Positions 11,100 to 63,334 of a stretch of 64,000 nt of DNA are shown here, in pieces; position 1 is the stretch's first letter; every line of letters begins with the position of its first letter. A program made the position numbers and the translations under genes. The DNA comes from Candidatus Latescibacterota bacterium (GTDB lineage Bacteria; Latescibacterota; UBA2968), in assembly GCA_965116885.1 (NCBI GenBank), contig OZ220741.1:2496001-2560000 (forward strand), given 5' to 3'. The notes beneath the pieces were generated by a model that searched no databases, was not told where the DNA came from, and saw only the letters and a list, made by a program, of their open reading frames with translations.

Positions 11100-11118
11100 T
11101 TTTCAATTTGTGTGGAGG

Positions 11119-11769
11119 ATGAATTTGAAAAAGCGTTTTAGTAAAGCCGAGAAAGCCGAAAGAATTGCCGAGATTTTGGATGAGTTATATCCCGATCCCG
11201 AAGGGTCGCTGAGACACGGGAGTGCTTATACTCTGCTGGTTGCGGTGTTGTTGTCGGCGCAGTGTACCGATGTGCGGGTCAATCAGGTGACGCCGGTTTT
11301 ATTTGCCAGGGCAGATACGCCAGAGAAGATGGTTGCGCTGTCGGTTGAAGAAATTGAGAGTATTATCCGTCCGTGCGGATTGGCACCTCGAAAAGCGCAG
11401 GCGATTTTTGATTTGTCTTGCATTTTACTGGATAAACACGATGGCGAGGTGCCCCAATCTTATGAAGATTTGGAAGCATTGCCCGGCGTGGGACACAAGA
11501 CGGCGTCGGTGGTGATGGCTCAGGCTTTTGGCGTGCCGGCATTTCCCGTGGATACGCATATTCACCGTCTCGCCTATCGATGGGGATTGTCCAGTGGCAA
11601 AAATGTGGTGCAGACCGAACGCGATTTGAAACGCATTTTTCCCGCGGAAATTTGGAATAAGCTGCATTTGCAGATTATTTTTTTTGGACGAGAATATTGC
11701 CCGGCGAGAGGCCATGATCTCCATCAATGTCGCATTTGTAGTGTGTATGGACGCAGGAGTTTATTGTGA
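11119..11769 (+). CDS. nth: Endonuclease III
   Basis: LLSAQCTDVRVN, HhH LPGVGHKTA, FPVDTH and C-terminal Cys residues; GGAGG RBS (start is ATG 11119 or TTG 11125). Confidence 0.95.
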   Translation: MNLKKRFSKAEKAERIAEILDELYPDPEGSLRHGSAYTLLVAVLLSAQCTDVRVNQVTPVLFARADTPEKMVALSVEEIESIIRPCGLAPRKAQAIFDLSCILLDKHDGEVPQSYEDLEALPGVGHKTASVVMAQAFGVPAFPVDTHIHRLAYRWGLSSGKNVVQTERDLKRIFPAEIWNKLHLQIIFFGREYCPARGHDLHQCRICSVYGRRSLL

Positions 11770-11785
11770 AAGATTGGAGGTGGAA

Positions 11786-12925: not shown

Positions 12926-12950
12926 AAAGCGACAACTGAAAGGAGATTTT

Positions 12951-14195
12951 ATGGCTTCTGATAAACCAAATATTATTCTGATTTTATCCGATGATTTGGG
13001 ATATGAATGCCTGGGGTGTTATGGGGGGGAATCGTATCAGACTCCCGTGCTGGATGGTTTGAGCAAGGAGGGGATGCGTTTTGACCATGCGTATGTCCTG
13101 CCGTTGTGTACGCCAACGCGGTTACAGTTGATGACGGGTAAATACAATTTTCGCAATTGGCGAGCTTTTGGGGTGATGGATCCGCAGGAGCGCACTTTTG
13201 GACATTTGATGAAAGCGGCTGGCTATAAGACGTGTATTTCGGGCAAATGGCAAATGTATAGCTATAATCCGCCGGATTTTGAACCCGAGTGGCGCGGCAA
13301 GGGGCAATTGGCGGAAGATTCGGGTTTTGACGAGTATTGTTTGTGGCATACGGAACACACGGAGGATAAGGGGTCGCGATATGCCGATCCGGTGATTCAA
13401 CAAAATGGGGCGTATTTGGAGGATACAGAGGGTAAGTACGGTCCGGATATTTATACGGCTTATATTTGCGATTATATCGAGCGACATAAGGACGATCCGT
13501 TTTTTGTTTATTATCCCATGGCGCTGACACACGGTCCGTTTGAACCCACGCCCCATAGCCAAATATGGTCTGAAAACCGACACGATAGCGGGGTGAAGTA
13601 TTTTAAAGATATGGTTGAGTATATGGATGTGGTGATTGGGCGAATTGTGGATAAATTGGATGAGCTTGGGCTTAGAGAGAATACTTTGCTTTTGTTTATT
13701 GGCGATAATGGGTCGCCCCGTCAGGTGACTTCTATGATCAATGGTCGCGAGTTCCAGGGGGGAAAAGGTCTTTCGACGGATGCGGGTACACGGGTGCCAT
13801 TTGTTGCGAGTTGGCCGGGTGCGATTCCACCGGGGTCTGTTTGTGATGATTTGATCGATTGTAGCGATTTTGTGCCCACTATGATGGATATGGCTGGTAT
13901 TTCTTTGCCCGAGGACGATGTGTTTGATGGGGTATCATTTTTGCCGCAGTTAAAGGGTGAGACGGGAACGCCGCGCGAGTGGATTTTTGCCCATCACGAT
14001 CCTTTGCCCGGATGGGGTAAGGAGGGTTACTATTTAAAGCGATGGGCACAGGATAAACGCTGGAAACTCTACGATACAGGCGATTTGTACGATGTGGTAG
14101 CAGATGAGTTGGAAGAGCATCCGGTCGTCGATGGCGGTGCAGACGCAGAGGCAGCGCGACGAAAATTGCAGCCCGTGCTGGATCGGATGAAGTAG
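12951..14195 (+). CDS. Arylsulfatase-like protein
   Basis: KPNIILILSDDLG, CTPTRLQLMTG and GDNG motifs; AGGAG RBS. Confidence 0.92.
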   Translation: MASDKPNIILILSDDLGYECLGCYGGESYQTPVLDGLSKEGMRFDHAYVLPLCTPTRLQLMTGKYNFRNWRAFGVMDPQERTFGHLMKAAGYKTCISGKWQMYSYNPPDFEPEWRGKGQLAEDSGFDEYCLWHTEHTEDKGSRYADPVIQQNGAYLEDTEGKYGPDIYTAYICDYIERHKDDPFFVYYPMALTHGPFEPTPHSQIWSENRHDSGVKYFKDMVEYMDVVIGRIVDKLDELGLRENTLLLFIGDNGSPRQVTSMINGREFQGGKGLSTDAGTRVPFVASWPGAIPPGSVCDDLIDCSDFVPTMMDMAGISLPEDDVFDGVSFLPQLKGETGTPREWIFAHHDPLPGWGKEGYYLKRWAQDKRWKLYDTGDLYDVVADELEEHPVVDGGADAEAARRKLQPVLDRMK

Positions 14196-18594: not shown

Positions 18595-19968
18595 CTAACG
18601 GGTTGCTCTGTTAATGCCTTTGATTTTTTGGTTTGCTTTGGCGCGCTGGTCGATTTCTTCGGGGGTGACGATGTTGTGGAGATCGGCGCGGAGGTCGGAG
18701 AGGATGTCGGCACAGGTGGGATCGCCGGCGCGATTCTCGGTTTCGTCGGGGTCGTTGGCGACATTGAATAATTGGTCCGGCAGGCCGACGTAGTGGATGT
18801 ATTTCCAGTCGCCTTTTTTGATCATGAAGCCGCCATTTAGCGCGCCCTGGGCGTGGTATTCGCTGAAGATGGGGCGGTCGGGAAAGGGATGACCGCTGAT
18901 GGCGGGCAGGAGGCTGCTGCCGGGTAAGGGCGCGGGGTCTTGTTCGGCGAGGTCGAGAAGGGTGGGGAGGATGTCGATGAGGTTGGCTCCCGCGGCGATG
19001 CGCTGGTTGCCCTCGGCGTTTGGGTGGCGAATGATCATGGGGACGCGCACGGCGTGTTCGTAGAAACATTGTTTTTGCCATATACCGTGGTGTCCGCCCA
19101 TTTCGCCGTGGTCGCTGACGTATATGACGACGGTGTTGTCGCGCAAGGGGGAGTTATCGACTATGTCGAGCAGGCGGCCGATGAGGTCGTCGGTAAAAGA
19201 GATGAGGCCGTAGTAAGACGCGGTTGCGGTGGTGGAGATGGCGTCGGGCAAGGGGTCTTCGTTGCGCAGCCAATGGCGGAGTTGCTGGATGGAAGGGTGC
19301 TGGGTGTCGCAGGGTTCGGTTCTCGTTTGTGGCAAGATGACGCGGTCGGGGTAGTAGCGGTCGAAGTATTCTTGCGGGCACAGGAGGGGAAAGTGGGGGT
19401 TCATGAAGCCGGTGTAGAGGAAGAAGGGATGGTCGGCGTATTGTGCGCGGGATTTGAGGAAGCGTTCTGAGAGATCGGCGGCTGTGCTGTCGTAGTGGAT
19501 TTGCCAGTTTTCTCCGGGACCGCATTCGGTGACGTGGCTGTTGCTGCCGCGCCGGTTTTCGGGCGTGCGCGAGGGGGCACCCATATTCCAGTGTTTCCAT
19601 TTTTCTGCGTCGTCCATGAGGCGCACGCCAAAGCCGTGCAGGCGTTCGGGACCTATGAAGTGGGTGCGGCCGCAGGCTGCGGTTTCGTAGCCCGCGGCTT
19701 CGAGGTAGCTGCCCATTGTGGGGATTGTACCCGCGAGAGGCGAGCCGTTGTCATAGGTGCCGATTTGGTGGACGTATTGTCCGGTCATAAAGGACATACG
19801 CGCCGGTACGCATATCGGGCAGGCGGTATAGGCGTTGTCAAAGGTGGTGCCTTCGGATGCGAGGCGGTCCATGTGTGGCGTTTCGATATGGGGGTGACCG
19901 TAACAGCCGGTGACTGCGGGGTCGTGTTCGTCGCTCATGATGAGCAAGATGTTGGGTCGCTGGTTCAT
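18595..19968 (-). CDS. Choline-sulfatase-like sulfatase
   Basis: RPNILLIMSDEH, CVPARMSFMTG and SDHGEM motifs. Confidence 0.9.
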   Translation of the reverse strand: MNQRPNILLIMSDEHDPAVTGCYGHPHIETPHMDRLASEGTTFDNAYTACPICVPARMSFMTGQYVHQIGTYDNGSPLAGTIPTMGSYLEAAGYETAACGRTHFIGPERLHGFGVRLMDDAEKWKHWNMGAPSRTPENRRGSNSHVTECGPGENWQIHYDSTAADLSERFLKSRAQYADHPFFLYTGFMNPHFPLLCPQEYFDRYYPDRVILPQTRTEPCDTQHPSIQQLRHWLRNEDPLPDAISTTATASYYGLISFTDDLIGRLLDIVDNSPLRDNTVVIYVSDHGEMGGHHGIWQKQCFYEHAVRVPMIIRHPNAEGNQRIAAGANLIDILPTLLDLAEQDPAPLPGSSLLPAISGHPFPDRPIFSEYHAQGALNGGFMIKKGDWKYIHYVGLPDQLFNVANDPDETENRAGDPTCADILSDLRADLHNIVTPEEIDQRAKANQKIKGINRATR

Positions 19969-20815: not shown

Positions 20816-22246
20816 TTAATACCTTCCTATGCGTTCGGGACCGGGGTCGGCGCATACCACGGTGTGGTCGAAGTTTTGTTTTATGAGTTGGTATTTCAGG
20901 TCTGTGTGGGATGGGTCTTCCCAGAGGTTGTGAAATTCATCGGGGTCTTCTTGCAGGTCGTAGAGCTCGCCGTAGTCTTCGTTGTGATAGACGACGAGTT
21001 TGTAGCGGTTGTTGCGCAACATGGTCGCCCAACAGGGTGTGTGTTTTTCAGAGGCGTGTGGGGCGAATTTATCGACGACGTCGTAGTATTCACAGCGCAC
21101 AAATTCGTGGTGCGCGTCCCCGGGATCTTCGCCCGTGAGTATGGGGGTGAGGGATTTGCCGTGTGTCCATTCGAGAGGGATGCCGGCGAGGTCGGCGAGG
21201 GTGGGCGCAATGTCTAAGAGCGCGGTGAGGCCGTCTGCGCGTTGGCCCTGGAGAAAGGTGCCGGGCCACGAGATGATGAGGGGAACCCGCACGAGGGCTT
21301 CGTAGAAACGGCAGCCTTTGCCGGTGAGGCCGTGATCGCCGAGCATTTCGCCGTGGTCGCTCGTGAAGATGACCACGGTGTTTTCGCGTTGGCCCGTGCG
21401 CTCAAGTGCATTGAGCATGCGACCGACGTTTTCGTCGATGAGTGCGATCATGCCGTAGTAAGACGCTTTGTTGTGCTGTTCGCGGTCGCCGGGTGGGTTG
21501 CCTTCTTTGTCTGCGAAAAAGCGTTTGAGCCGCGTTTGTGTTTGCAGGTCGCTTTCGCAAAATAGCGGCGGTGGCAAGTCGGCGGGATTGTATTTGTGCG
21601 TGTCGGGGGCGTCAAAAGGTCCGTGCGGGTCAAAGGGGTTGACGCTCATGAGATAGGGGCCGTCGTGGGGGGATTCGATAAATTCAATGGCGCGGTCCGC
21701 ACACCAGGTGGTCTGGTGGTGTTGGGGATTCATGTCGGGGCGATAGTTGCCGTATGTGCCGTCTTTTTTTGTTTGAAAGACGTCGCCGAGGTCTATGCCC
21801 TGTTCGGTGAGCCAGTCGGTGTACTGGTTGCCGTTTCCGATACCCTGATTGTGTGAGTGGCTATACCAGAATTTGCGATACCCGTCGTCAACGCGTTGTT
21901 CTTCGCCGTTCCAGGCAGAGGCGAGGTGGAGTTTGCCCGATAAACCGCAATCGTATCCGGCATCTGCGAGGCGTTTGGTGATGAGTTGTACGCGTTCATT
22001 TGCCGGGAAATAGGCATTGCCATTGCGATTGCCGTGTACGGTGCTGGGATAAAGCCCGGTGAGAAAGCTGGAGCGACTGGGCGTGCATATCGCGCTCTGG
22101 CAGTGGGCATGTGTGAATGCTACGCCTTCGGCGCAGAGGCGGTCGAGGTTGGGTGTCTGGATGTGTTCATTGCCGAGGGCATGGATGGTGTCATAGCGTT
22201 GTTGATCTGTGCAGATCCAGAGGATGTTGGGGCGTTTTGATGTCAA
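20816..22246 (-). CDS. Sulfatase-like hydrolase
   Basis: RPNILWICTDQQR and CTPSRSSFLTG motifs; TTG start after GAGGAG. Confidence 0.9.
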   Translation of the reverse strand: MTSKRPNILWICTDQQRYDTIHALGNEHIQTPNLDRLCAEGVAFTHAHCQSAICTPSRSSFLTGLYPSTVHGNRNGNAYFPANERVQLITKRLADAGYDCGLSGKLHLASAWNGEEQRVDDGYRKFWYSHSHNQGIGNGNQYTDWLTEQGIDLGDVFQTKKDGTYGNYRPDMNPQHHQTTWCADRAIEFIESPHDGPYLMSVNPFDPHGPFDAPDTHKYNPADLPPPLFCESDLQTQTRLKRFFADKEGNPPGDREQHNKASYYGMIALIDENVGRMLNALERTGQRENTVVIFTSDHGEMLGDHGLTGKGCRFYEALVRVPLIISWPGTFLQGQRADGLTALLDIAPTLADLAGIPLEWTHGKSLTPILTGEDPGDAHHEFVRCEYYDVVDKFAPHASEKHTPCWATMLRNNRYKLVVYHNEDYGELYDLQEDPDEFHNLWEDPSHTDLKYQLIKQNFDHTVVCADPGPERIGRY

Positions 22247-22257
22247 TGGTGGTCTCC

Positions 22258-23679
22258 TCAATCGCGCGCGCCTCTGATAACGCGGCCGTTTTCGGTCCAG
22301 TGATCGCGGTAAAAGGTAATGGGTTCAAAGGTGTCGTTTAGTGCGTCCATGCGCGTCCGAATCTGGTCGCGGTAATGCTGGGTTGTTCTGGCATGGTCAG
22401 GGCTGCTGGCGAGGTTGTGCAATTGCAGGGGGTCTTCGCGGTGATTGTAGAGGGATTCTCCATGTTTTTCAATGGCATAGGTGTATTGTTTGTCGCGCAG
22501 AGCACGCCATTCAAAGCCATCGTCCCAATCGACACTGGGGCCCATGCCCTGTAAGAATGCGGATTCGGGTTCATCTCCATGCTGACCAAGTGCGCAATGG
22601 GAAAGGTCAAATCCATCGATACCATTGGGGATATCGACGTTTAAGAGTGAGAGTAGCGTGGGCATGATATCGGGCGTGTTGAGACAGGCATCGCTTTCGG
22701 ATTTGGGCGCGATGCGATTGGGCCAGCGCATGAGAAAGGGGACGCGAGCGGCTTCTTCATAGTAGATGTTTTTCTGAACGCGACCGTGTGCGCCAAACAT
22801 TTCGCCGTGGTCTGACGTGAAGACGACGAGGGTGTCGTGCGCGAGGTTAAATCTGTCTATCGCGTCTAATATTCGGCCCACGTTCCAGTCGAGGTTGGCA
22901 GTCATAGCGGCATAGATTCGCTGCCATTCAACGAGGTTGGGTTTGACGGATTTCATCCACCAATCGCGGTCGAACCATGCATGCCAGTATTCTCCCGATC
23001 CGTCCCGGTAATTTGGCGGCAGGTCAAAGGCCATGTCTTTGAAGTGCATACCCCATTCTTCGGGGACGTTGTCCCAGTTCCAGGGCTGATGAGGTGTGCC
23101 ATAAGAGACGAAGAGGGCGAAGGGTTCTGGATTTTCGCGCGCGTTTTCGAGATAGGAGATGGCGAGGTCGGTCATGGCATCGGGTTCATAGGCCTGGATG
23201 TCGATGCGTTCAAATTTGTCTTCGTAATAAAATCCCTTGTAATAGCTGTGGTTGAAGTTGTAGGCTGCCCAATAGTGGTCAAATCCCAGTCGGTGCGGGC
23301 CTGGGGGCACGAATTGATTGGCGGGATTCTTGTGAAAATCTCCGGCCTGTTTATAAACTTTGCCTTCGGTTGCGTAAATGTGCCATTTGCCGATGTAGGC
23401 ACAATTCGTGCCGTTCTGCGTCAATGTGCCGGCAAGCGTTGGCAGATCGGTGCGGGCGCCCAATTCGTTCATGACGTAGCCATTGGTGGTGGGATAACAG
23501 CCCGTAAAGAGGGATGCGCGATGCGGGCTGCACACGGGATAGACCGAGGTGGCGTTGACAAAGTTGATGCCTTCAGATGATAGGCGGTCGATATTGGGGG
23601 TGCGGGCGCGGTTGTCACCCATATAGCCACAGGATTGCGGGCGGAGTTGATCGGCGAAGATGTATAGAAGGTTAGACAC
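22258..23679 (-). CDS. Sulfatase
   Basis: CSPHRASLFTG, GKWH and SDHGEM motifs. Confidence 0.9.
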   Translation of the reverse strand: MSNLLYIFADQLRPQSCGYMGDNRARTPNIDRLSSEGINFVNATSVYPVCSPHRASLFTGCYPTTNGYVMNELGARTDLPTLAGTLTQNGTNCAYIGKWHIYATEGKVYKQAGDFHKNPANQFVPPGPHRLGFDHYWAAYNFNHSYYKGFYYEDKFERIDIQAYEPDAMTDLAISYLENARENPEPFALFVSYGTPHQPWNWDNVPEEWGMHFKDMAFDLPPNYRDGSGEYWHAWFDRDWWMKSVKPNLVEWQRIYAAMTANLDWNVGRILDAIDRFNLAHDTLVVFTSDHGEMFGAHGRVQKNIYYEEAARVPFLMRWPNRIAPKSESDACLNTPDIMPTLLSLLNVDIPNGIDGFDLSHCALGQHGDEPESAFLQGMGPSVDWDDGFEWRALRDKQYTYAIEKHGESLYNHREDPLQLHNLASSPDHARTTQHYRDQIRTRMDALNDTFEPITFYRDHWTENGRVIRGARD

Positions 23680-52266: not shown

Positions 52267-53010
52267 ATGGCTACACCAAATCGCATTCTCGAGCGTTATC
52301 GCAATGGCGAAAAGGCCGTTGGCGTGCAGATGAGTTTTGTTTCGGAAATTGTGATTGAAGTGGCGGCTAAGATGGGGATGGATTTTATTTCGCTGGATGG
52401 GCAGCACGGGGCGTTGACGCTGCCGACTATTGAGACGGTTTGTCGCCTTTGCGATGCTTATGGTATGACGCCTACTATGCGGGTTGTGGATCAGTCCGAG
52501 GCGGCTATTTTGACGGCGCTGGACCGGGGTATGCAGATGATTACGGTGCCCAATTTGCAGACTGCTGAGGAGGCCGAGCGGATTGTGCAGTTTGGTTTTT
52601 ACGGGCCTTTGGGTCGGCGGAGCGCGATGAGCCAGCGCGTGGCTTATGGTTTGAATGATACCAGCGATAGTCGGAAGATTTTTGAGTTTACAAATGACAA
52701 TACGATTATTGTGCCGCAGCTCGAGAGCAAGACGGCTTTTGACAATTTGGATGAGATTCTCCAGGTTGATGGGCTTATGTTTTTTGCGGGCGGTCCGCAA
52801 GATATTGCGCAGTCTATGGGGTACCCCGGAGAGCCGAATCATCCAGAGTGCATAGCGGCGTATGAGGCGGCGTGTGAGAAGGTGCGCGCGGCAGGGAAGC
52901 ACATGAGTGGCGATGTGATGGTTAGTCTGGATGCCTTTGGGGCGATTTACGATGCGGGGAAGGCGTTGCTCGAAGCACACGGCCGCGAGTGCGGTATGAA
53001 GATTGGGTAA
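52267..53010 (+). CDS. HpcH/HpaI aldolase family protein
   Basis: LDGQHG, QLES and GPQDIAQSMG motifs. Confidence 0.87.
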   Translation: MATPNRILERYRNGEKAVGVQMSFVSEIVIEVAAKMGMDFISLDGQHGALTLPTIETVCRLCDAYGMTPTMRVVDQSEAAILTALDRGMQMITVPNLQTAEEAERIVQFGFYGPLGRRSAMSQRVAYGLNDTSDSRKIFEFTNDNTIIVPQLESKTAFDNLDEILQVDGLMFFAGGPQDIAQSMGYPGEPNHPECIAAYEAACEKVRAAGKHMSGDVMVSLDAFGAIYDAGKALLEAHGRECGMKIG

Positions 53011-53029
53011 AGATATCGGTGTGCGATAT

Positions 53030-53115
53030 TGTAGGGGCGGTGCCCCCGTGCCCGCCCGCTGGGTGGCTGGGTGGGGTTCGTTGATTCGCTGATTCGTCTA
53101 TTCGCTGATTCGTTT
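53030..53115 (+). repeat. REP element followed by about 5 x 8-bp ATTCG-core tandem repeats
   Basis: TGTAGGGGCGGTGCCCCCGTGCCCGCCC (53030-53057); gttcgttg attcgctg attcgtct attcgctg attcgttt (53076-53115). Confidence 0.8.
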
Positions 53116-53126
53116 GCGAGGTACAT

Positions 53127-54536
53127 TTGTCTAAGGCACAGGTTGAACCCGGGGAGGCAGAACCGCTGTCTCCCCGGGCGGCTCGGCGCGTGTTGATTAG
53201 CCTGATGTTTTCGTCTATGCTGATGCCTATGGTGTCTGGCATGTCGCGGGTTGCATTGCCGGTTATTCGGGATGATTTTGGGATTCCCGCAGATTTGACG
53301 GCGTGGGTTCTGGCAGCTTTTATGCTGCCTTTTGTCGTTTTGATGCCGATTTATGGGCGTTTGAGCGATGGGGTTGACCGGCGGTTGTTGATTCTTTTGG
53401 GGACTGTGATTTTTGGCGTGGGTTCCGCGATGACGTTTATGGCGCCGAATATGCGCTGGTTGATGGCCGGGCGTGCGATTCAGGGGATTGGCGTGGGGGG
53501 GATGACGCCGATGGGTATGGCGCTGCTCGCGTCGATTTTTAGTGAGGGAGAGCGCGGGCGCGTTCTGGGTACGTGGAGTGCGGTGGGTCCGGCGATGAGT
53601 TTTTCGTCGTCGTTTGTCGCGGGTCTTCTCATTGCGCTTTGGGGGTGGCGCGCCGCTTTTGTGCCGGGGCTTTTGCTCAGTGTTGTGACTTTTGTCGCGA
53701 TTTACAGGGGGGTGCCTTCTCAGGTGATTGGTGAGGCGTCTAAATTTTTGCGGCAGTTTGATTGGGGTGGGGTCGGGTTGTTGTCGGGTGGGATTGTGTT
53801 TTTGATGTTTTATTTGTCCAGTCGGTCTGTGACGGGGGTTGCCCCGTTTGAGGATTGGCGGTTGCTTTTGGGCGCGGGGGTGTTTTTTGCGGGTTTCTGG
53901 TGGTGGGAGAGAGGGCGGAGAGATCCTTTTCTTCCGCTCAATTTTTTTGGCAATCGCATGTTTTGCCGGGTGACGTTTTGCGCTTCGATGCGGATGTTTG
54001 TGCAGGGCGGTATTGGGGTGTTGATGCCGCTGTATCTGGTCGATGTTCACCAGATGGGTCCGGCACTGTTGGGCGTGTTTTTGATTATTAGCTCTGCGGC
54101 GATGACGCTGATTGTGCGGTTCGGCGGGCAGATGTCCGATCGTTTTCAGAGTCGGTGGCTGGTGATGATTGGGATGTTTGTGCAGTTGACGGTGATGCTG
54201 GGCTTTGCCCATTTGTCCGATGCGATTTCGACATGGGTTATTGCTGGTCTGCTGGCGTATTATGGGCTTGGGGCAGGGTTGATGCTGGCTGCTTTGCACA
54301 GTACGGTTATGGGGACTGTCGATTCAGATCAGATGGGGGCTGCTGCAGGGCTTTATAGTATGCTGCGGTTTATGGGTATGGCGATCAGTACAGCCCTGAT
54401 CGGGGTGGTGTTGCAGTTTTTCTTCGATGCAAATTTATCTACTCTCGACGCGTATCAGAAGGTATTTATGGTGCTTGCGATATTTCCCGTTCTGGGGATG
54501 GTGGTGGCATTTGGATTGCGGGAAAAGAGGTTGTGA
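53127..54536 (+). CDS. MFS drug:H+ antiporter (DHA2, 14-TM)
   Basis: YGRLSDGVDRR, GRAIQGIG and FDWGG motifs. Confidence 0.9.
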   Translation: MSKAQVEPGEAEPLSPRAARRVLISLMFSSMLMPMVSGMSRVALPVIRDDFGIPADLTAWVLAAFMLPFVVLMPIYGRLSDGVDRRLLILLGTVIFGVGSAMTFMAPNMRWLMAGRAIQGIGVGGMTPMGMALLASIFSEGERGRVLGTWSAVGPAMSFSSSFVAGLLIALWGWRAAFVPGLLLSVVTFVAIYRGVPSQVIGEASKFLRQFDWGGVGLLSGGIVFLMFYLSSRSVTGVAPFEDWRLLLGAGVFFAGFWWWERGRRDPFLPLNFFGNRMFCRVTFCASMRMFVQGGIGVLMPLYLVDVHQMGPALLGVFLIISSAAMTLIVRFGGQMSDRFQSRWLVMIGMFVQLTVMLGFAHLSDAISTWVIAGLLAYYGLGAGLMLAALHSTVMGTVDSDQMGAAAGLYSMLRFMGMAISTALIGVVLQFFFDANLSTLDAYQKVFMVLAIFPVLGMVVAFGLREKRL

Positions 54537-54753
54537 TCACCGCTTGGGTATTTATCAATATTCTCTTAGATCCTACCTATAACCCTTTATTCTTTTTAAA
54601 ATCTGAAGCAGATCGGTCTTTTTTTAGGGAATTATATACAAAAGGGCCAGACAAATATTCCTATTAACGCGATTGACAAATGACCCGAACCTCACACATC
54701 CGTTTATACCATTATTTTGAAAATTCGCTTTCCAACTGATAGTCAAAAAATTT

Positions 54754-54919
54754 GGTAGTGCCTCATTTTGAAAATTCTCGGATGTTTTCTCTCTAAATGG
54801 GTGTCTCTTTTTCAATTTAAATTGGGGCGCGAGGCGCGAGAAACTCAAGAGTATAAAGAAAAGTGTCTCACTTTGAAATCCATCTGAAATCCGCAACGAA
54901 AATTTCAAAGTGAGACACT
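54754..54919 (+). repeat. Left end: five GTGTCTCAnTTTGAAA-like sites (fwd, fwd, rev, fwd, rev)
   Basis: Sites at 54754, 54797, 54829 (partial), 54862 and 54903; the last two form a perfect 18-bp inverted pair. Confidence 0.85.
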
Positions 54920-54938
54920 AAAAAAAGTTGAAAAAATT

Positions 54939-55193
54939 TTAGATGGACGAAATGCTTGAGTTTGGGACGCTATCGCCGAAACGAAATCTATTAAATTGTA
55001 ACTTGTCAAAGCGAGACAGTTGACGGTGCAATCCCAGTATCCCTTTGAAATAACACTCTGGCTTTAAGACGTTGCCATTTTCGTCTTTGCGATACACAAT
55101 AAACACGTCCTCGCGTGGACTACGCCTTGTAGCTGTAATTGTAGCGCAAGAGTAATCATCAGAAAATTCGAGTCGTACATTGGAAAATCCCAT
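54939..55193 (-). CDS. Small hypothetical protein (84 aa, MGFSNV…)
   Basis: ATG at 55193 after AAGGAG; upstream TTCCGT-17-TATAAT promoter (55277-55305). Confidence 0.6.
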   Translation of the reverse strand: MGFSNVRLEFSDDYSCATITATRRSPREDVFIVYRKDENGNVLKPECYFKGILGLHRQLSRFDKLQFNRFRFGDSVPNSSISSI

Positions 55194-55279
55194 GACTGTT
55201 CTCCTTACTTTGTGGTTGGAGCGGAATGGGATAGTGAGTGGGCGGTGGACAGACCGCCCACTCACGCTAAATTTTGATT
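55178..55279 (-). promoter_or_regulatory. Structured 5' leader, copy 1 (13-bp hairpin plus start-codon-sequestering stem)
   Basis: Direct repeat of 56379-56472; stem 55234-55246/55253-55265. Confidence 0.65.
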
Positions 55280-55396
55280 ATATTGGTAAAGATAGACAAA
55301 CGGAAGATTGCCTACAAGTTTTTCTCAATTCTAACAACAAATCCGTCTCGGAGTCATTGTGCCTTTTGGGGCGAGCGATTCAAAGAAAGGAAGTAA

Positions 55397-56167
55397 ATGA
55401 CACAATCTCGCATTATTGTAGAACCATCATGCAAATGGCGTCTGCAAGTAACTGAATTACAGGCATTATTAGAAAATGTAAGAGATGTTTTTGATGATCT
55501 ACTGGTTTGTCCGCCTGAATCTGGTATTATCGTGCGCTACTGTCCATCAGGTCCCAGAGTATTACACAAGCGGGCGGATGATGGATCGTATATTGTACTT
55601 CTTTTTGTATCGACTGATGGTTATGGTCAACCCATTTTTCAATTCGCTCATGAATACGGGCATATCCTCTCTAACTACCGATTTTATGGGCGTCACAAGA
55701 AACAGATTTGGTTTGAAGAATCAATATGTGCATTAGCATCTGCGTTTGCATTGAAAGGATTACAAACTAAATGGAATAACAGCGTGGACGATATGGCAAG
55801 AAATGTAAGGGCGTATCATGTGGGCGATTACTTTAAGTCCGCGTTTGGAGATATTTCTCGCCAATCAAATTTTGCACAATGGTACAGGAATAATAGAGAA
55901 GAACTTGAGAATATCGACTATCATCAGAGCGATAAAAAAGATATAGAACGTATTAGAAAGAAAAACGATATAGTGGCTATTGAGCTTCTTGATATTTTTG
56001 AAAAGTATCCCACTAAGTCGTGGAACGCCGTGCGCTACATGAATCAAGGTCACATAAGTATTGTGGACGAAAGCCTCACCCATTACTTAAACGACTGGCG
56101 TAAACGAACACCTGAACAGTGGCAATTTATAATAGGAAAAATTATGAAGCGATTTGAAATATCTTAA
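55397..56167 (+). CDS. HExxH zinc-metallopeptidase-like protein
   Basis: QFAHEYGHILS…WFEESIC (gluzincin-like HExxH plus downstream E). Confidence 0.7.
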   Translation: MTQSRIIVEPSCKWRLQVTELQALLENVRDVFDDLLVCPPESGIIVRYCPSGPRVLHKRADDGSYIVLLFVSTDGYGQPIFQFAHEYGHILSNYRFYGRHKKQIWFEESICALASAFALKGLQTKWNNSVDDMARNVRAYHVGDYFKSAFGDISRQSNFAQWYRNNREELENIDYHQSDKKDIERIRKKNDIVAIELLDIFEKYPTKSWNAVRYMNQGHISIVDESLTHYLNDWRKRTPEQWQFIIGKIMKRFEIS

Positions 56168-56190
56168 TCTGTTCACATTGGGCTTTCGCT

Positions 56191-56394
56191 CTAATTTCTG
56201 GCGGAATAAAGAAACTCGCGCAATACACTCAGAGGGTGAGTCTTAACCCAAACAGTTTCGGCATTGCCGTCATAGGTCGGAAACGTCTCGCCCTTAACAA
56301 TCATTAAATTCACCCTCCGGTCAGGTTTGTGTTCAGGGTTATAAATGCCAGGCTCCAGACACTTTTCGCCTGTTCTACCATTGGAAAATCCCAT
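56191..56394 (-). CDS. Small YjzC-like protein (67 aa, MGFSNG…)
   Basis: TGEKCLEPGIY…KGETFPT pattern; AGGAG RBS; paralog at 57400-57636. Confidence 0.65.
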   Translation of the reverse strand: MGFSNGRTGEKCLEPGIYNPEHKPDRRVNLMIVKGETFPTYDGNAETVWVKTHPLSVLREFLYSARN

Positions 56395-56472
56395 GACTAT
56401 CTCCTGCTATGGGGTTAATTGGGATAGTGTGTGGGTGGTGTCCCGACCGCCCACACACACTAAATTTTGATT
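56379..56472 (-). promoter_or_regulatory. Structured 5' leader, copy 2
   Basis: Direct repeat of 55178-55279 with a compensatory stem change; stem 56427-56439/56446-56458. Confidence 0.65.
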
Positions 56473-56543
56473 GTTGCTTTCTATAATTTACGATAGTCCG
56501 ATTTTAAAGTCCAGGTTCAAACTGAGACACTTGTACACAAAAA

Positions 56544-56582
56544 AGTCTGGCGAGCCATTTAATTAAAATGACCCGCCAGACT
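56544..56582 (-). terminator. Minus-strand intrinsic terminator; also the left direct repeat of the FRG gene
   Basis: AGTCTGGCGGGTCATTT-taatt-AAATGGCTCGCCAGACT plus T run (17-bp stem with two G-U pairs). Confidence 0.75.
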
Positions 56583-56610
56583 CAGCACAACACAATTTTG
56601 GGTTGACTTT

Positions 56611-57384
56611 ATGGAGAAAATAAAAATGAATAAAGAATTTTTTGATTGTTATTCGGAAGTGATTAAAAGCATTGTTGACTTATCGAAAAAACGATGTGGG
56701 GAAGGTTCTGGTATTGAAGTTCTTTATAGGGGAGAGCCTCAAAAGTATTCTTATATATCTTCTGGTTTGTATCGTTTTCTTTCGGATGTGTATAAGTGGG
56801 ACGAATTAGATTATGTGATGAAAAATCGTATTATAGTCAAGTCTGAAGAACTTATTGCACGGGATATTGTTTCTTTTGAAGGTATTGATGGGCATTATGT
56901 GGATATATGGCGGAATCAGGGGTATATGCCAACTCAATTAGTTAAATATTTTGCTGAAATTCAACATCTTGGCGGTATGACTAATTTGATAGATTTTACA
57001 AAGGATATTAACATAGCGTTGGTTTTTGCATGCAATACTCCTGATAGTTTGTTGGGTGACGAAGAAGGGGATGGACGTATCATAATTTATTATCATGACC
57101 GAAAAAACAGAAATGGAAATGATGTCCTTCATTTTCCCAAAAGTGGTTATGGTCACTTTCAATCGAGTATTTTGATTCGTCCTTTTGAAAATGGGATTCT
57201 TAAAGAAGATCAGGATTTTGTTGATATATTTGATATACCGTTTGAGAAAAAAGAGCCAATTTTGATAGCATTAAAAGAATACTATAATTTAACTGCTCGC
57301 TCTATTTATTCTGATTTGAATGGCTATATTCGGAATCAAAAGGGGTTTCTTAAAGTTGCTCTTTCAAATTTGGCGAATAAATAG
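56611..57384 (+). CDS. FRG domain protein
   Basis: LYRGE, SSGLYR and QHLGGMTNLIDFTKDINIALVFAC motifs; very AT-rich. Confidence 0.85.
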   Translation: MEKIKMNKEFFDCYSEVIKSIVDLSKKRCGEGSGIEVLYRGEPQKYSYISSGLYRFLSDVYKWDELDYVMKNRIIVKSEELIARDIVSFEGIDGHYVDIWRNQGYMPTQLVKYFAEIQHLGGMTNLIDFTKDINIALVFACNTPDSLLGDEEGDGRIIIYYHDRKNRNGNDVLHFPKSGYGHFQSSILIRPFENGILKEDQDFVDIFDIPFEKKEPILIALKEYYNLTARSIYSDLNGYIRNQKGFLKVALSNLANK

Positions 57385-57385
57385 A

Positions 57386-57419
57386 GGCGAACCATCCAAT
57401 TAAAATGACCCACCAGACT
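57386..57419 (+). repeat. Right 34-bp direct repeat of the FRG gene
   Basis: GGCGAACCATCCAATTAAAATGACCCACCAGACT versus 56549-56582 (30/34). Confidence 0.8.
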
Positions 57420-57636
57420 TCACGCCAATAAAACTGAGAACATAATCGCGTAACACGCGCAGATGTCCAGTCTGTTTCCAGTTAGTTTCGTTATTGCAAT
57501 TATAGGTCGGAAATACCTCGCCCTAAAAAATGATTAAATTTACGGTCTGGTCATGCCAGTGCTCAGGATTGTAAACCCCTGATACAAGGCACTTTTCGCC
57601 TTGACCATCAATTGTTTTCAGCGTGTTGCATCTCAT
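57400..57636 (-). pseudogene. Second YjzC-like gene with an in-frame TAG
   Basis: Manual translation GEKCLVSGVYNPEHWHDQTVNLIIF*GEVFPTY…LRVLRDY aligns with 56191-56394. TAG at 57523-57525 replaces AAG (Lys). The start position is uncertain. Confidence 0.75.
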
Positions 57637-57922
57637 TGATGAGGTCAATAAGATGCTCGGTTAATGTGTCAATGCGCCTGAATGCGTCATTTATCCGCAT
57701 GTTCGTTTGGTTTATGCGACTGTAAATTTGATGTATTCGCCTGTCCGTTTCGATTCGTGATTCGCACATTTGGTCTGTGATTAGCCTATTCATATTAAAC
57801 AAATGTTCTTTCATGTGCTCTTGCTCGTCAATGTGCTCTTGAATATGCTCATGAATGAACCTGTGCAGAATCTCTGACAAGCCATTGACCTCTGTTGTTG
57901 AGTGTATTTCGTGTATAGTCAT
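57608..57922 (-). CDS. Hypothetical coiled-coil protein
   Basis: Heptad-like RIETDRRIHQIYSRINQTNMRIND; GGGAGA RBS; upstream TTGCAT-17-TATCTT promoter. Confidence 0.6.
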   Translation of the reverse strand: MTIHEIHSTTEVNGLSEILHRFIHEHIQEHIDEQEHMKEHLFNMNRLITDQMCESRIETDRRIHQIYSRINQTNMRINDAFRRIDTLTEHLIDLINEMQHAENN

Positions 57923-58050
57923 TGTTCCTTCTCCCTTGCAATGAATATATAAGAATGTAGTTGTGCTGTTTGCAGGAGAAGATAGCGAAAACAGTATTGC
58001 GATGCAAGGGAAAAATTTGCGTAAGTTATTAAATTAAAATACTTTACAGC

Positions 58051-58201
58051 AGGTTTCTCACTTTGAAATTACAATCTAAAACTTTCAAAATGAGACACAA
58101 AAAGAAAAGAGTGCCTCGCATTTTACAATCATTTTGAAAGCGAGACACCCATGCAAATCTACGGCAAAAATGCTGATGAAATTTCAAACTGAGACTTTAC
58201 C
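58051..58201 (-). repeat. Right end: five sites mirroring the left end
   Basis: Sites at 58051, 58083, 58111 (partial), 58132 and 58182. Confidence 0.85.
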
Positions 58202-58208
58202 AAAAATT

Positions 58209-58949
58209 TTAACGAATCCGTATGATTGTTGCTCTAAAATCACAGGAACCCATTATACTCAACCTGGTTTGTAATAATGATAAATTTTCATCAAGTATCA
58301 CACCATTAGCTCCACGTCTTTTGGCATCCTCGCGCACAACTTCTAAAACTTCAAGAGGGGTAGAACGACGAATTACTTTAACAAAAATTTGTCCAATTTC
58401 TTCGTATTTCACGTTACTTGCACGATGTTCAAAAATTTTTACTTGCCCATCCCATTTCTCATACGTTTTTCCAGTCTCTAAAAACTCAATCTGAATATTA
58501 TTAGAAATAACACGTTTAGGCACAGTCTTAAAAACTCTCTTTGGAGATTCACTACCACCATCTCTAATATCTTTTAACCTATCTCTTATCCCATCAATAT
58601 CCCGCTTCATCTCCTCAATACTTACACGTACAGACCCAACAACCTGACCCAAATCATCCAGCCTTTTATTTTTTTTAATATTATTCCCTTTTAATTCAGA
58701 ATAATCTTCTTTGTCAATACCTGAATTTTTATTTTCTGAAACACCCTCATGAATCTCACGAACCTCACGCATTTCTAACCTGTAAACCTGATCGTACAAA
58801 GAATCAATTTTAACAGATAAAACATGCAACGAATCTTGTCCCTCACTATATAAATCATCCGTCCTAACAGATAATTGCTGTAAATTCAAATACAAAATCA
58901 CAGTAATTACAAAAAGTACAAACGTACATAACCATAACCCTTTGGACAT
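58209..58949 (-). CDS. Membrane-anchored coiled-coil hypothetical protein (passenger of the outer cassette)
   Basis: N-terminal TM, coiled coil and C-terminal AKRRGANGVIL (YbjQ-like) segment; GGAG RBS. Confidence 0.7.
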   Translation of the reverse strand: MSKGLWLCTFVLFVITVILYLNLQQLSVRTDDLYSEGQDSLHVLSVKIDSLYDQVYRLEMREVREIHEGVSENKNSGIDKEDYSELKGNNIKKNKRLDDLGQVVGSVRVSIEEMKRDIDGIRDRLKDIRDGGSESPKRVFKTVPKRVISNNIQIEFLETGKTYEKWDGQVKIFEHRASNVKYEEIGQIFVKVIRRSTPLEVLEVVREDAKRRGANGVILDENLSLLQTRLSIMGSCDFRATIIRIR

Positions 58950-59134
58950 ATAGATACTCCAGTCTAAAAAAATGAATATCTCATAAATACTGCATAGTTA
59001 CCATATTTAGTCCCGTCAAGAACACTCAAACTTTCCCTCGGCCCGTTTGTATATAATTCCCTTTTTTAAATGCAAGTTGTGAATGGGTACCATTTATATC
59101 GGTCAGAACCAAATTGCTGGACCTGATATTCATT

Positions 59135-59863
59135 TTACCACTCCCCTGATGTGTACTTAGTTTCCAATTCATTGAGTCCCATGAATTTCACACGTTTACG
59201 AATTTCGTGGAAAGTGTCCATTGAGATTTTGTCGGTAAAAATGTTTATCCGATGTTTTGGGGCAACAATGCTGAATTGTATATAAAAATCTTGCAGTTCG
59301 TTGAATTTAATCAACGAATTCTGCATATCCGTGGACATTTCAACTTCGAACATCGCTTCTGGCATCTTTCGTCGATTGAACCAGATAACATCCACGGTTT
59401 TGGCTTTACGCATAAAGTCTGGATAGCCAAAATTGGGTAGCTGCGTCGAATCGCATACATCGCCAAGTTTTTGATTACCGCCGAAGACTTGATTTTTGTC
59501 TTGAGCAGGGACATAGGTCTTGTAATCACGAGCCTTGCCGATTTCCACCAGCAAGCCCTGATAATGCGTGTGATTGCGTTTCTCCGCGTCACGCGGGATG
59601 TCGCCGCGTTGTGGGATTTTGTACTCTTTTTCAAATTCCTCGGCGCGTTCAGTAAGGCAATATAACCCCGGTTTGAGACGGTAAAAGTAGTCAGATTTTT
59701 CTTGCACAATGCGCCGAATGGTCGCCTCCGGTGTCTTGGTCTTCCAATTCACCCCAGCCCCGTTTGGCGGAAGAATATCGGAATTCAACTGTGATAATGT
59801 GGCGATACCACCCAGCCTTTTGAGTGCTTCTAAAACCTGCATCCACTGTGGAATACTTTTCAT
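59135..59863 (-). CDS. Winged-HTH (HARE-HTH-like) + PD-(D/E)XK restriction-endonuclease-like protein
   Basis: WKTKTPEATIRRIVQ…PGLY N-terminal domain; HTHYQGLLVEIG and VDVIWF…FEVEMST nuclease-like motif. Confidence 0.7.
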   Translation of the reverse strand: MKSIPQWMQVLEALKRLGGIATLSQLNSDILPPNGAGVNWKTKTPEATIRRIVQEKSDYFYRLKPGLYCLTERAEEFEKEYKIPQRGDIPRDAEKRNHTHYQGLLVEIGKARDYKTYVPAQDKNQVFGGNQKLGDVCDSTQLPNFGYPDFMRKAKTVDVIWFNRRKMPEAMFEVEMSTDMQNSLIKFNELQDFYIQFSIVAPKHRINIFTDKISMDTFHEIRKRVKFMGLNELETKYTSGEW

Positions 59864-60017
59864 CTATTTCCCCGTTTGGGCTTAGTCCTTTGGATTTGGA
59901 CTTGACCCGTTTTAGCGGACAACTTATCTCTTTCATGGATTCCACTAGACATAGGAGAGATCTCCTTTGCTGTAACAATGACTTCCATTTCTGAGCTCTC
60001 TAATTGATCTAACCTGT

Positions 60018-60599
60018 CTAATAGTTTTTTGTCCATAATTCCTCTTCTTCGGTCTCTGGCCTAATTTGTTTCTTCCTCAATTCTTCAAACTCATAATTAT
60101 CCAGTTCGATTTTGAGTTTAGTAAGATCTATCATTCGGACCAGCAAACAGAAAACATACCCTATTGCCACTGATATTAAAATAATAGACACAAAGAGCAT
60201 CCAGTATAGCTTAGGCTGTGTGGCGTTAGCGGATGTGTCATTTATTGGCGGATTTATTATAATCGCACAGAAAACAGCCAACATAGAACAGGCGACCACA
60301 AAGATCCAGCGCCAAATCAGCTCTATTTGCACATCTCCCAATTTATGAAAGAGTTCTTCTGCTCTATCGGAGTATTTGATGCCCTGTATCAGTGTTCGAG
60401 TTTGCGATATCCAACCGATACTCCATCCAACCAGAATTCCGGCAATAGCCGAGAAATTCCCAAGTGTCCGGACTATTTCAGTTGCTGTTTGAGGCGTTGG
60501 AAATAAATTAAATAAATAGACACACATAGACCCCAGGGAACCCAGAGCTCCAAAAAACATTGCCTGAATGAGGAGTTTTTTTGCCATATTCATGCCCAT
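60018..60599 (-). CDS. Hypothetical 4-TM membrane protein
   Basis: Four hydrophobic segments; co-oriented with and downstream of 60664-61620. Confidence 0.7.
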   Translation of the reverse strand: MGMNMAKKLLIQAMFFGALGSLGSMCVYLFNLFPTPQTATEIVRTLGNFSAIAGILVGWSIGWISQTRTLIQGIKYSDRAEELFHKLGDVQIELIWRWIFVVACSMLAVFCAIIINPPINDTSANATQPKLYWMLFVSIILISVAIGYVFCLLVRMIDLTKLKIELDNYEFEELRKKQIRPETEEEELWTKNY

Positions 60600-60663
60600 T
60601 TCTCAGTTTATTGGATACATGGATATACTCTCTAATTGCTTATTCAAAAAGTATTTATTTCCA

Positions 60664-61620
60664 TCATATATGTTCTTGTAGAGCCAGAGAATTATGCCAT
60701 TCGATCATTTTACGAAAAATATCTTGGTCATCAGGCATGTCATTTATGTGGACCACATCTTTTCGGGTGCTTAGCCGTAATTCATCGTATTTTAGCGTGC
60801 CTGAATCGGTTTCTACTTCAATGTGAATGTCTGTGTCATCGCCAACATGGCGAAAAGTGTTTGCCAGCGCGTCAATTTGGTCAGAAAGCCTTCTTGTCCC
60901 TCTCTTTTTTTTCAAAGCGAGAGATAGAGTGACTTCAATATCTTGGTCTTGGGTAACTCCGCGTGTGTATGTCTCTGTGATGTGTTCAGAGGATAGACCT
61001 GTCATTGCTTTTATCGCATCCCATCCACGTCCTATAGGCGGTAATGACCTTCTGGTTTTCAAGTCAGTGCTCAGAGGGGCTGAAATGTTGATTCGTCGTG
61101 CCCCTCTGATTTTGTCTCGGGATTTTCTCGATATTGTTCGCCGAATTATCATTTGCCGTTCTTTGAAAAATCCTGTCGCGCGTTTACAAAACATACTATT
61201 GAGATATTTTTCCAAGTGTCGCACTTGAAGGTGCTGATCTTGGGCGGCAATCAAGTAATTACGATAGCAGACAAAATAAAGTTTTCCCTTAAGAAATTGT
61301 TGATCAGTTCCATCCTGAGCAGGTGGGGCTTTGAGCACACCAGCCTGAAGTTCTTCACTATCAAGATCTTCTTTAATTATTTCTCCAATTCCATTCTTGT
61401 CATACTGGAAGAAGTTGGCACAAAAGAAACCTCTATAGATACTATTATAGTTGATGAGGTTGAGGCGGTTCGCTGCTATGTATTCATCAACTTCACGCAG
61501 CCGATCCCTAACTTTTGTATCTCTAAAAACATATATCAATAGATCTTGTAGTGTATAATTGTAGGGTTCATTAAACTGAGCCTGCCAATAAGTGAAACTT
61601 TTCTTTTTGAAATTAGCCAT
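60664..61620 (-). CDS. Hypothetical soluble protein (about 318 aa)
   Basis: Long AT-rich ORF; no motif recognised with confidence. Confidence 0.7.
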   Translation of the reverse strand: MANFKKKSFTYWQAQFNEPYNYTLQDLLIYVFRDTKVRDRLREVDEYIAANRLNLINYNSIYRGFFCANFFQYDKNGIGEIIKEDLDSEELQAGVLKAPPAQDGTDQQFLKGKLYFVCYRNYLIAAQDQHLQVRHLEKYLNSMFCKRATGFFKERQMIIRRTISRKSRDKIRGARRINISAPLSTDLKTRRSLPPIGRGWDAIKAMTGLSSEHITETYTRGVTQDQDIEVTLSLALKKKRGTRRLSDQIDALANTFRHVGDDTDIHIEVETDSGTLKYDELRLSTRKDVVHINDMPDDQDIFRKMIEWHNSLALQEHI

Positions 61621-61779
61621 AACTGTCAATGTCTTCCAAGCTTTTGTAAATACTGCGCTAGTGGGTATTTATATCTCTAAGATTTTATCTTCTTGAGAAG
61701 ATTCGATAGACTCCATTTAGACGCAAAATAAGAAAACGGTTAGAACTGAACCAGCTAAAAGCTGTCTGTGGCGTATATT

Positions 61780-61986
61780 TCAATTTTTTTTATTTGCTTT
61801 TCTCTGTTCCATTGCAGCTTTGCTTATCTCAGCGACATTTCTCTCGGACCAGAGGTTTTGCTGCCATTTCGTATAATCGAATGGCTCTCGCAAGATCAAG
61901 CTGATAAATTTCTCAGCTTCAACATCTCCCAAAACATCTACCAGTGCGCGTAGTCCATTTACTCGTATTTCAGTATCGGTTCTCAT
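61780..61986 (-). CDS. Putative antitoxin paired with the PIN protein
   Basis: GLRALVDVLGDVEAEKFI…FDYTKWQ; ATGA overlap with the PIN gene. Confidence 0.75.
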   Translation of the reverse strand: MRTDTEIRVNGLRALVDVLGDVEAEKFISLILREPFDYTKWQQNLWSERNVAEISKAAMEQRKANKKN

Positions 61987-62417
61987 AGATTCATCTCCCG
62001 AACAAAAGAGGTTGGATCTAAAACACTAATCCCCTGTATGTTTTGGCTACGCTTGAGGATTCTGTCATCCGTTGTCAAAAAATGACCACATCCTCCAGCT
62101 ATGGCACACGACAAGTGTAAAGCGTCCTTCGGCTTTAGCCCAAGTTTAACCAGATCGTCCGCTTTTTGCAAGATTACAGTCGTTTCCTCAAGATCGATAG
62201 CCGCGTATCGCTTCCAGTTAGTGATTACCGCGCGTCGCTCCTCAAAAGGATTCGCTTCGTTCTCAGAATCGATAATATATGACCAGACAAGTTCCAGCGT
62301 ACCCTCCCGAATATTCTCCTGAATACACAGCTTCGCTTCCGCTTCAAGGCGGACTCTTGTTTGCCCTTGATCATCAAATGGGCGATTGAAACAACAGTTA
62401 TCGAGATAGACTCTCAT
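61983..62417 (-). CDS. PIN domain (VapC-like) toxin
   Basis: VYLDNCCFNRPFDD, DALHLSCA and FLTTDD motifs. Confidence 0.88.
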   Translation of the reverse strand: MRVYLDNCCFNRPFDDQGQTRVRLEAEAKLCIQENIREGTLELVWSYIIDSENEANPFEERRAVITNWKRYAAIDLEETTVILQKADDLVKLGLKPKDALHLSCAIAGGCGHFLTTDDRILKRSQNIQGISVLDPTSFVREMNL

Positions 62418-62473
62418 ATCCGATCTCACATTTTTTGAGGACTTCTGCGGGGGAAAATCAACGGCACTTAACT

Positions 62474-63334
62474 TCAATCATCACCCAATAGCTTCTGTGC
62501 GTTTTGATATGTTATTTTGTCGAATGCTTCTTTCGGCAGGTTCAGGCGTTGTAGATAGTCCATCAGGCGCGTGTCGAAGTAATCCCTTCCAAATAACAGG
62601 CTATCTTGAAAATCGATCAGGAATTGCCTGCCAAATGCTTCGTCTCTGCTGATTGCGGTCAGTCCCGATCCCGCTGAGAGGTCGGCGTATAGATTGTCGT
62701 ATTTTTTGAGCATCTGGGGGACTTTGCCGCCGGGTTCAATTGGACCTGTGGGATAGGCTTCTTTGTCGAATTTGCCGTCGCCGGAAATGTGCGCCCAGAA
62801 TCCCGGGGCGTGGCCGATGAAGTTGGTTTCGGGACATGCGATAATTGCCCGTTCAAATGCTTCGATGCTGCCGCCGTACCACCAGTTTGGTCGCGGGTAA
62901 TCCCCGCGTCCGTGGTCGATGGGATAGTCGAGATGGATTGTGATTGGCAGGCCCATTTCTCCACAGGCATGATATAGTCTGAGGGCATCCGGGTCGTCAA
63001 ATACCACCCGCACCTTTAGTTCGCTGGCAACCCGAATCCCGTGAATTTCTACGGCTGCTTTCAGGCGGTCAATTGCGTCGGGCCGCTTTGGGTGTGGCAT
63101 GTATCCCAGTACAAATCGGTCGGGGGCTGTGCGCCCTACCTGTATCACGTCTTCGAGGGGGATGCACACGCCTGTTGGGGGCAATACTTTGTGATAGCTG
63201 GGACTGTATTCATCTTCTGGCGCTTCCCAGGAAAAGAGCCACATCTGGTCGATGTTTTGCTCGTCCATGTTTTTCAATATTTTTTCGGCGTTGAATCCGT
63301 GCCAGTTTGGGTGATTGTGCGCGTCGATTAACAT
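62474..63334 (-). CDS. Amidohydrolase_2 family protein
   Basis: IDAHNH, FIGHA, YADLSAGSG and LFGRD motifs. Confidence 0.88.
   Translation of the reverse strand: MLIDAHNHPNWHGFNAEKILKNMDEQNIDQMWLFSWEAPEDEYSPSYHKVLPPTGVCIPLEDVIQVGRTAPDRFVLGYMPHPKRPDAIDRLKAAVEIHGIRVASELKVRVVFDDPDALRLYHACGEMGLPITIHLDYPIDHGRGDYPRPNWWYGGSIEAFERAIIACPETNFIGHAPGFWAHISGDGKFDKEAYPTGPIEPGGKVPQMLKKYDNLYADLSAGSGLTAISRDEAFGRQFLIDFQDSLLFGRDYFDTRLMDYLQRLNLPKEAFDKITYQNAQKLLGDD

Follow-up and report, generated by a model that had tools for sequence, protein, structure and literature searches.

A nested, repeat-bounded unit between two core genes

We analyzed a 64,000-nucleotide stretch of a Candidatus Latescibacterota genome (contig OZ220741.1, positions 2,496,001 to 2,560,000; hereafter the window), in which a repeat-bounded unit of 4435 bp (54627-59061) sits between two convergent core genes, one encoding an MFS transporter (ending at 54536) and one an amidohydrolase (ending at 62474). 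The unit opens with the 22-bp terminal inverted repeat (TIR) GGGAATTATATACAAAAGGGCC at 54627-54648 on the plus strand, and it closes with a copy matching at 21 of 22 positions at 59040-59061 on the minus strand. Both repeats were located by reading the sequence and by a pattern search, and a repeat finder reports the pair as I2 (23 nt, 96%). When up to three mismatches are allowed, the 22-mer has two matches in total in the window, namely the pair that the preliminary description of this locus had proposed; none of 100 shuffles yielded two or more matches, which rules out a chance origin of the pair. Directly outside the repeats lie the two copies of a putative target duplication, TTTTTTA, at 54620-54626 and 59062-59068, both read from the sequence and identical at 7 of 7 bases. 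If the duplication is read as 8 bp long (left copy 54619-54626), ttttttta and ttttttaa agree at 7 of 8.

A second repeat-bounded element is truly nested within this outer unit. It spans 3448 bp (54754-58201); its terminal inverted repeats are imperfect, and on both sides it abuts an exact 8-bp duplication, AAAAATTT (8/8; 54746-54753 and 58202-58209). In the right copy, the final T (58209) doubles as the first base of the tta triplet that forms the stop codon (TAA on the minus strand) of the outer unit's passenger gene, and the passenger open reading frame (ORF; 58209-58949, minus strand, 246 aa) is therefore intact, just as had been claimed for an insertion at the stop codon that leaves the gene undisrupted. 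Removing the inner element and one copy of AAAAATTT leaves 4435 - 3448 - 8 = 979 bp, ordered as repeat, 97 bp of non-coding subterminal sequence that forms the 3' flank of the passenger (54649-54745), the membrane-protein gene, 90 bp of upstream region (58950-59039, minus strand) and repeat. The arithmetic agrees with the 979-bp, one-gene unit described previously. The membrane protein is the sole original ORF of the unit and has no transposase domain.

Our preferred reading, to which we give a probability of about 60%, is that 54627-59061 is a transposase-less, repeat-bounded, single-gene cassette, now a relic, that later received a nested insertion. The cassette would have arrived in a single event, most likely catalyzed by a DDE-type transposase supplied in trans, and its target would have been a T-run in the intergenic gap between the convergent MFS and amidohydrolase genes, with 7-8 bp duplicated. 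Later, an unrelated non-autonomous element (54754-58201) would have entered AAAAATTT at the passenger's stop codon, giving rise to the nested structure. While the repeats, flanks and nesting are read directly, we infer the transposition mechanism and the trans-acting enzyme. The outer element is probably immobile today.

The terminal 22-mer in other genomes

We scanned one genome per species across 185,579 species, using as query the first 19 positions of the 22-mer, 18 of them specified. The scan returned 18 loci, and random matching predicts about 17 (596 Gb x 2 strands / 4^18). GCC, which the query did not select, follows the pattern in eight of them (L003, L007, L008, L012, L013, L014, L016 and L017); seven of these eight belong to metagenome-assembled genomes (MAGs) of Latescibacterota/Latescibacteria and one, L007, to a gammaproteobacterial MAG (Candidatus Poriferihabitans). 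The other 10 diverge straight after the pattern and 7 of them lie inside ORFs of at least 140 aa; these 10 look like chance matches.

An alignment of 10 ends is invariant or nearly so at 22 positions, and identity collapses at base 1 outward and after base 22-23 inward. Nine ends are independent, namely the window pair and seven copies elsewhere, the remaining locus (L013) being the same site as the window's left end. The outer 8-bp flanks of these nine are A or T at 67 of 72 bases (93%). Such sharp edges, together with such flanks, are the behavior of a transposon terminus, and the 22-mer fits a terminus with an A/T-rich target preference.

Comparisons of three pairs of loci show that the 22-mer is joined to DNA that can move. 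The window's right end and L008 share the 22-mer, about 70 bp inward and 4 flanking bases at 84% identity (window 58970-59065), although L008 lies at an unrelated site, where the small ORF that comes next is another one. L003 and L016 have about 600 bp inward in common at 80% identity and nothing in common outward; the common DNA comprises a 163-aa ORF and a 96-bp imperfect palindrome, which in L016 is closed by the 22-mer directly after a gene's stop codon. L012 and L017 are orthologous, being 91% identical on both sides, with 22-mer junctions that lie 96 bp apart and lead into different inner DNA; the offset means either that one hot spot took two insertions or that a deletion began at the end. 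GC content shows no consistent boundary on either side of the 22-mer in the other loci. Rfam searches gave no match at E <=0.1 in window positions 53000-63000 and none at gathering score in the eight loci.

A motif of this kind could instead serve a site-specific recombinase as its site, or act as a promoter or regulatory element common to island genes, which we consider very unlikely. Read on the strand GGCCCTTTTGTATATAATTCCC, it contains TATAAT; it is short and exactly conserved in defense islands, with no transposase of its own nearby; and the L016 palindrome following a gene stop superficially resembles a cassette recombination site. However, its position and orientation relative to neighboring genes vary, with a gene start facing it at the window's right end and in L008, and a gene end facing it in L003, L016 and L012. 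The inner flank is unrelated between copies, so that no conserved second promoter hexamer accompanies the 22-mer, and the 96 ORFs within 8 kb of the seven other copies contain no integrase or recombinase domain except the rve transposases of IS3. Its sharp outer boundary, with A/T-rich flanks beyond it, is in keeping with a transposon end.

One cassette or two independent scars

We now turn to the one close relative of the window, L013 (OX638329.1), which is about 93% identical to it from window position 46.6 kb up to 54697 and again from 62481 onward. Its left flank is that of the window, and it keeps the left repeat plus another 49 bases (54627-54697 being conserved) and lacks 54698-62480. 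Because it carries the left end at the same site, the outer left end is older than the split between the window and L013. In the island's place (8072-8396), L013 has an IS3-type orfA that is cut short (start MPPTRPPYPPELKRQIVELVRAGRSPSELAKEF) plus some 150 bp of other DNA, the latter including a repeat also present in L017, and then rejoins the window at the end of the amidohydrolase gene. The replacement looks like an IS3-associated deletion.

Several observations weigh against a single cassette. The L013 breakpoints (54697/54698 and 62480/62481) do not coincide with the element's ends, the left one lying inside it, and this relative, which retains the left repeat and the adjoining 49 bp, offers neither an uninterrupted 979-bp copy nor the empty site that the preliminary description had suggested seeking. 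That description had also named two findings that would count against nesting: a TIR occurring nowhere else, and relatives without the island whose breakpoints lie elsewhere. The first is contradicted by the 22-mer's intact presence at eight loci outside the window, whereas the second is what L013 presents. A search for partner ends (22-mer at <=5 mismatches; its first 14 bases at <=3 mismatches; check for a duplication) found no intact partner within 8 kb of the seven independent copies elsewhere at <=5 mismatches, the sole exception being a degenerate 17/22 partner 96 bp away in L016, which has no duplication; paired ends with a duplication qualify in the window only. Several of the records are titled as whole chromosomes or are megabase-scale contigs (3.4-6.5 Mb), each with one or two pattern matches. 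The TTTTTTA duplication, although present as previously described, is a low-complexity, near-homopolymer tract of weak significance. Finally, an IS1595-family transposase between the same TIRs, which the preliminary description had proposed to look for, was not found: no IS1595/ISXO2-type DDE transposase is encoded by the 58 ORFs of the window (13 + 45, Pfam) or by the 96 ORFs near the seven other copies (39 + 57, Pfam), and the scan behind this sample needed 18 exact bases, so that it would have passed over diverged copies, among them any autonomous parent whose ends differ slightly.

These points raise the main alternative, in which each 22-mer is an independent solo end, the scar of its own and possibly larger element, and the two came by chance to lie 4.4 kb from each other, in inverted orientation, within an insertion hot spot; the 979-bp 'cassette' would then never have moved as a unit. 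All seven other independent copies are solo, and the L012/L017 pair illustrates that one hot spot can hold ends at a spacing of 96 bp. The loci are rearranged defense islands, with IS3 copies or fragments at a distance of up to about 1.5 kb from the 22-mer in 4 of 8 (L003, L008, L013 and L017), although this proximity may merely reflect a common preference for A/T-rich island DNA. The TTTTTTA match is itself weak when read as 8 bp: in the 36 pairings of the nine outer flanks, one of the 35 non-cognate pairs agrees at 7 of 8, as the true pair does. The 7/7 match, however, is confined to the true pair (0/35 non-cognate pairs); the window's two repeats are correctly inverted and enclose a compact single-gene unit; and the right subterminal region is continuous with the passenger gene that it precedes. 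Given both sets of observations, we regard two independent scars as unlikely, and we retain the single cassette with a later nested insertion as the better account of the locus.

The passenger gene and its protein

The 246-aa passenger protein consists of an N-terminal membrane helix, a long coiled coil and a small C-terminal alpha/beta domain (residues ~150-246). Searches of Pfam, NCBIfam and PADLOC gave it no family match that rises above noise. A near relative, P0001, is 91% identical and is encoded on a 1932-bp contig, and an exhaustive phmmer search with the passenger protein gave nine matches at E <=0.001, one of them at 44% identity (E 1e-28) and the others covering just residues ~150-235. 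Judged by its 91%- and 44%-identical homologues, the passenger is a real gene. A consensus scan found no promoter upstream of it.

Structural modeling of the passenger from its single sequence performed poorly, with a predicted local distance difference test score (pLDDT) of 49, and AlphaFold with a 10-sequence alignment predicts the membrane helix, the long coiled coil and, with confidence, the C-terminal alpha/beta domain, which alone is given a pLDDT of ~90. When the model was compared with the PDB by Foldseek, there were no matches at E <=0.001; the best match, which misses this threshold, is FvfA (3e-3), followed by small periplasmic domains of the RcsF, YahO and YdgH types. Atlas features score below 0.9 throughout and supply as leads only RcsF, DUF4156 and YbjQ. 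Together, the Foldseek and Atlas leads loosely hint at small periplasmic or lipoprotein domains, and in our reading of the alignment several relatives show a Cys at the expected end of a lipoprotein signal peptide. We read the passenger as a putative envelope protein.

Family assignment of the outer element

The end of the outer element begins GGGAATTAT, which fits ggnnatTAT, a string that we take to be the end consensus of the ISNwi1 group within the IS1595 family of insertion sequences (ISs). A full-text literature search for this string found no paper. Our best guess for the outer element, going by how its end reads and by its putative 8-bp A/T-rich target, is IS1595/ISNwi1; we do not file it under IS1595, because the transposase that defines the family was sought and not found. 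The search for that enzyme covered genomes matching 18 exact bases of the 22-mer; in this sample the only transposases near the other copies are of IS3 type, there is no cognate autonomous IS with the same ends, and a second full copy of the cassette was not found, L008 having the right end and ~70 bp alone. The passenger together with the right end has no match among 72,556 plasmids, and the left end has merely 18-base chance matches there (E = 3).

The unit could be a true cassette and yet derive from an IS family other than IS1595/ISNwi1, either another family that duplicates 8 bp or an undescribed one; we treat this as a serious possibility, held at odds somewhat below even. The ISNwi1 label draws on a presumed end consensus that the literature search did not return, no IS1595-type protein is encoded in the window or near the other copies, and the plasmids hold nothing similar. 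On the other side, GGGAATTAT fits this presumed consensus at every position, and the 8-bp A/T-rich target agrees with what has been reported for the family. In its passage on ISApl4, a member of the IS1595 family, one paper describes A/T-rich 8-bp direct repeats (PMC12561309). Two texts (PMC3129680, PMC4611040) refer to the 2009 paper on IS1595 for IS copies with passenger genes besides the transposase, and the citing passages do not mention passenger-only derivatives. Transposase-less mobile insertion cassettes (MICs), miniature transposable elements with inverted repeats (MITEs) and solo inverted repeats (solo IRs) are listed as recognized IS derivatives in the relevant passage of PMC3129680.

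The inner element, the island and the core

The ends of the inner element, GGTAGTGCCTCATTTTGAAAATT and the complement of AAATTTCAAACTGAGACTTTACC, match at 18 of 23 positions when counted by hand. A pattern search of the window for GTCTCAnTTTGAAA gave 8 matches, compared with 0.57 expected; its sites are terminal and subterminal and occur in both orientations, with five near each end and one at 56516. This motif is absent from all 18 loci of the scan, and the Pfam scan of window ORFs identified no transposase within the inner element. The cargo comprises an M78-like ORF, an FRG-domain ORF and small YjzC-like ORFs. The inner element contains repeated modules, each with a small minus-strand YjzC-like ORF, preceded by a 32-nt GC-rich hairpin, beside a cargo gene. 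The YjzC-like ORFs lie at 54939-55265 and 56191-56394 (minus strand), with a degenerate, 71% identical copy at 57439-57601, and the hairpins at 55234-55265 and 56427-56458. The cargo ORF at 55397-56167 (plus strand) has a weak M78/IrrE-like match (E 0.01), while the FRG-domain ORF at 56611-57384 (plus strand; Pfam E 9e-9) also matches the PADLOC candidate defense family PDC-S15 (E 3e-8).

The island that contains both elements is 7.85 kb long and low in GC (33% at 58-59 kb, versus 51-56% in the core to its left). The preliminary description had two non-autonomous systems, both targeting A/T tracts, build this island by nesting. The nesting and the location of both elements in A/T tracts hold, whereas the nested pair makes up only 4.4 kb of the 7.85 kb; the rest of the island (59.07-62.48 kb) is low in GC as well. 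In that remainder (59135-62477), PADLOC gives a type II restriction-enzyme-like match for an ORF of 242 aa (E 1.5e-7), an ORF of 193 aa has only weak matches to membrane-protein families, and one of 321 aa has no match. It also encodes a PIN-domain ORF (61983-62477) that overlaps a 68-aa ORF, the two looking like a toxin-antitoxin pair. The core of the window (1-54000) has an unusually strong GC skew on its coding strands, up to 0.34 per kb, and encodes at least five sulfatases (1324-2982, 12675-14195, 18595-19968, 20816-22261 and 22258-23679) and a sulfotransferase.

Surroundings of the other copies

The neighborhoods of the other copies are defense islands, with genes for PglZ, Eco57I/MmeI-type methylases, AbiE, Schlafen/AlbA_2 and MazF, as well as an OLD-type ATPase with a UvrD helicase and a Gp49-type toxin. 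In L016, ORFs for an OLD-type ATPase/TOPRIM protein and a UvrD-type helicase lie directly outside the 22-mer (8270-11859) and form a Gabija-like pair, and an AbiEi/AbiEii pair lies inside it. The IS3-family copies or fragments are located at 5997-7416 in L003, 6449-7846 in L008, 7815-7906 in L017 and from 8072 onward in L013. In the gammaproteobacterial locus L007, the inner edge of the 22-mer is exactly where a match to group II intron domains V/VI stops (RF00029; 7926-8000; 32.2 bits, E 6.5e-4, below the gathering score), with a truncated reverse-transcriptase ORF (7058-7909) just upstream.

Implications

The element is unusual only in that its 22-mer is perfectly conserved across two phyla and that the sampled assemblies hold no intact autonomous copy. 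As a long shot, the 22-mer would mark an undescribed family of single-gene shuttle cassettes that carry small envelope and defense-associated genes into A/T-rich defense islands and are shared between Latescibacterota and a gammaproteobacterium, unrelated members of one microbial community. Their transposase would be encoded by a phage or plasmid, or by another member of the community, rather than by host chromosomes, which would explain why megabase-scale assemblies contain the ends alone.

If the preferred reading is correct, the locus adds another case in which IS-derived, transposase-less cassettes and nesting shape a variable, defense-rich island, here in a poorly studied, uncultured phylum. 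It opens no new mechanism; its modest added value is the 22-mer as a marker for the parent transposon and for exchange between Latescibacterota and gammaproteobacteria.

Comparison with known systems

Among known systems, the IS1595/ISNwi1 elements invite comparison through the target, as the putative 7-8 bp duplication of the window unit in an A/T tract resembles the A/T-rich 8-bp repeats given for ISApl4 in the passage on that element (PMC12561309). The window unit differs from them in that no Zn-ribbon/DDE transposase is encoded in or near the sampled copies of the 22-mer, and in that the known passenger-carrying members, as the citing passages present them, are IS copies with additional passenger genes.

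The 96-bp palindrome of L016 resembles a MITE, and the seven solo 22-mers resemble solo IRs, of one and the same parent. A MITE is under ~300 bp, non-coding, repeat-bounded and multicopy, whereas the window unit has 979 bp and is coding; only the L016 palindrome is MITE-like, and it has no duplication. As the window unit carries a complete and, from its sequence, expressed-looking gene, we class it as a cassette and not as a miniature element.

The closest parallel is with the MICs, for example MIC231 derived from IS231, in which, according to the passage devoted to them (PMC3129680), IS-type TIRs enclose one or more passenger genes and no transposase is present. Their mobilization is presumed to occur in trans, as we presume for the window unit. 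Unlike them, the window unit has no cognate autonomous IS in the sampled DNA and is not seen at a second site with its own duplication, its one intact copy being accompanied elsewhere by solo ends; and its host is an uncultured Latescibacteria-like organism. With IS-type TIRs at both ends and a passenger gene in place of a transposase, the outer unit works like a mobile insertion cassette, and it is an ordinary kind of mobile-DNA relic.

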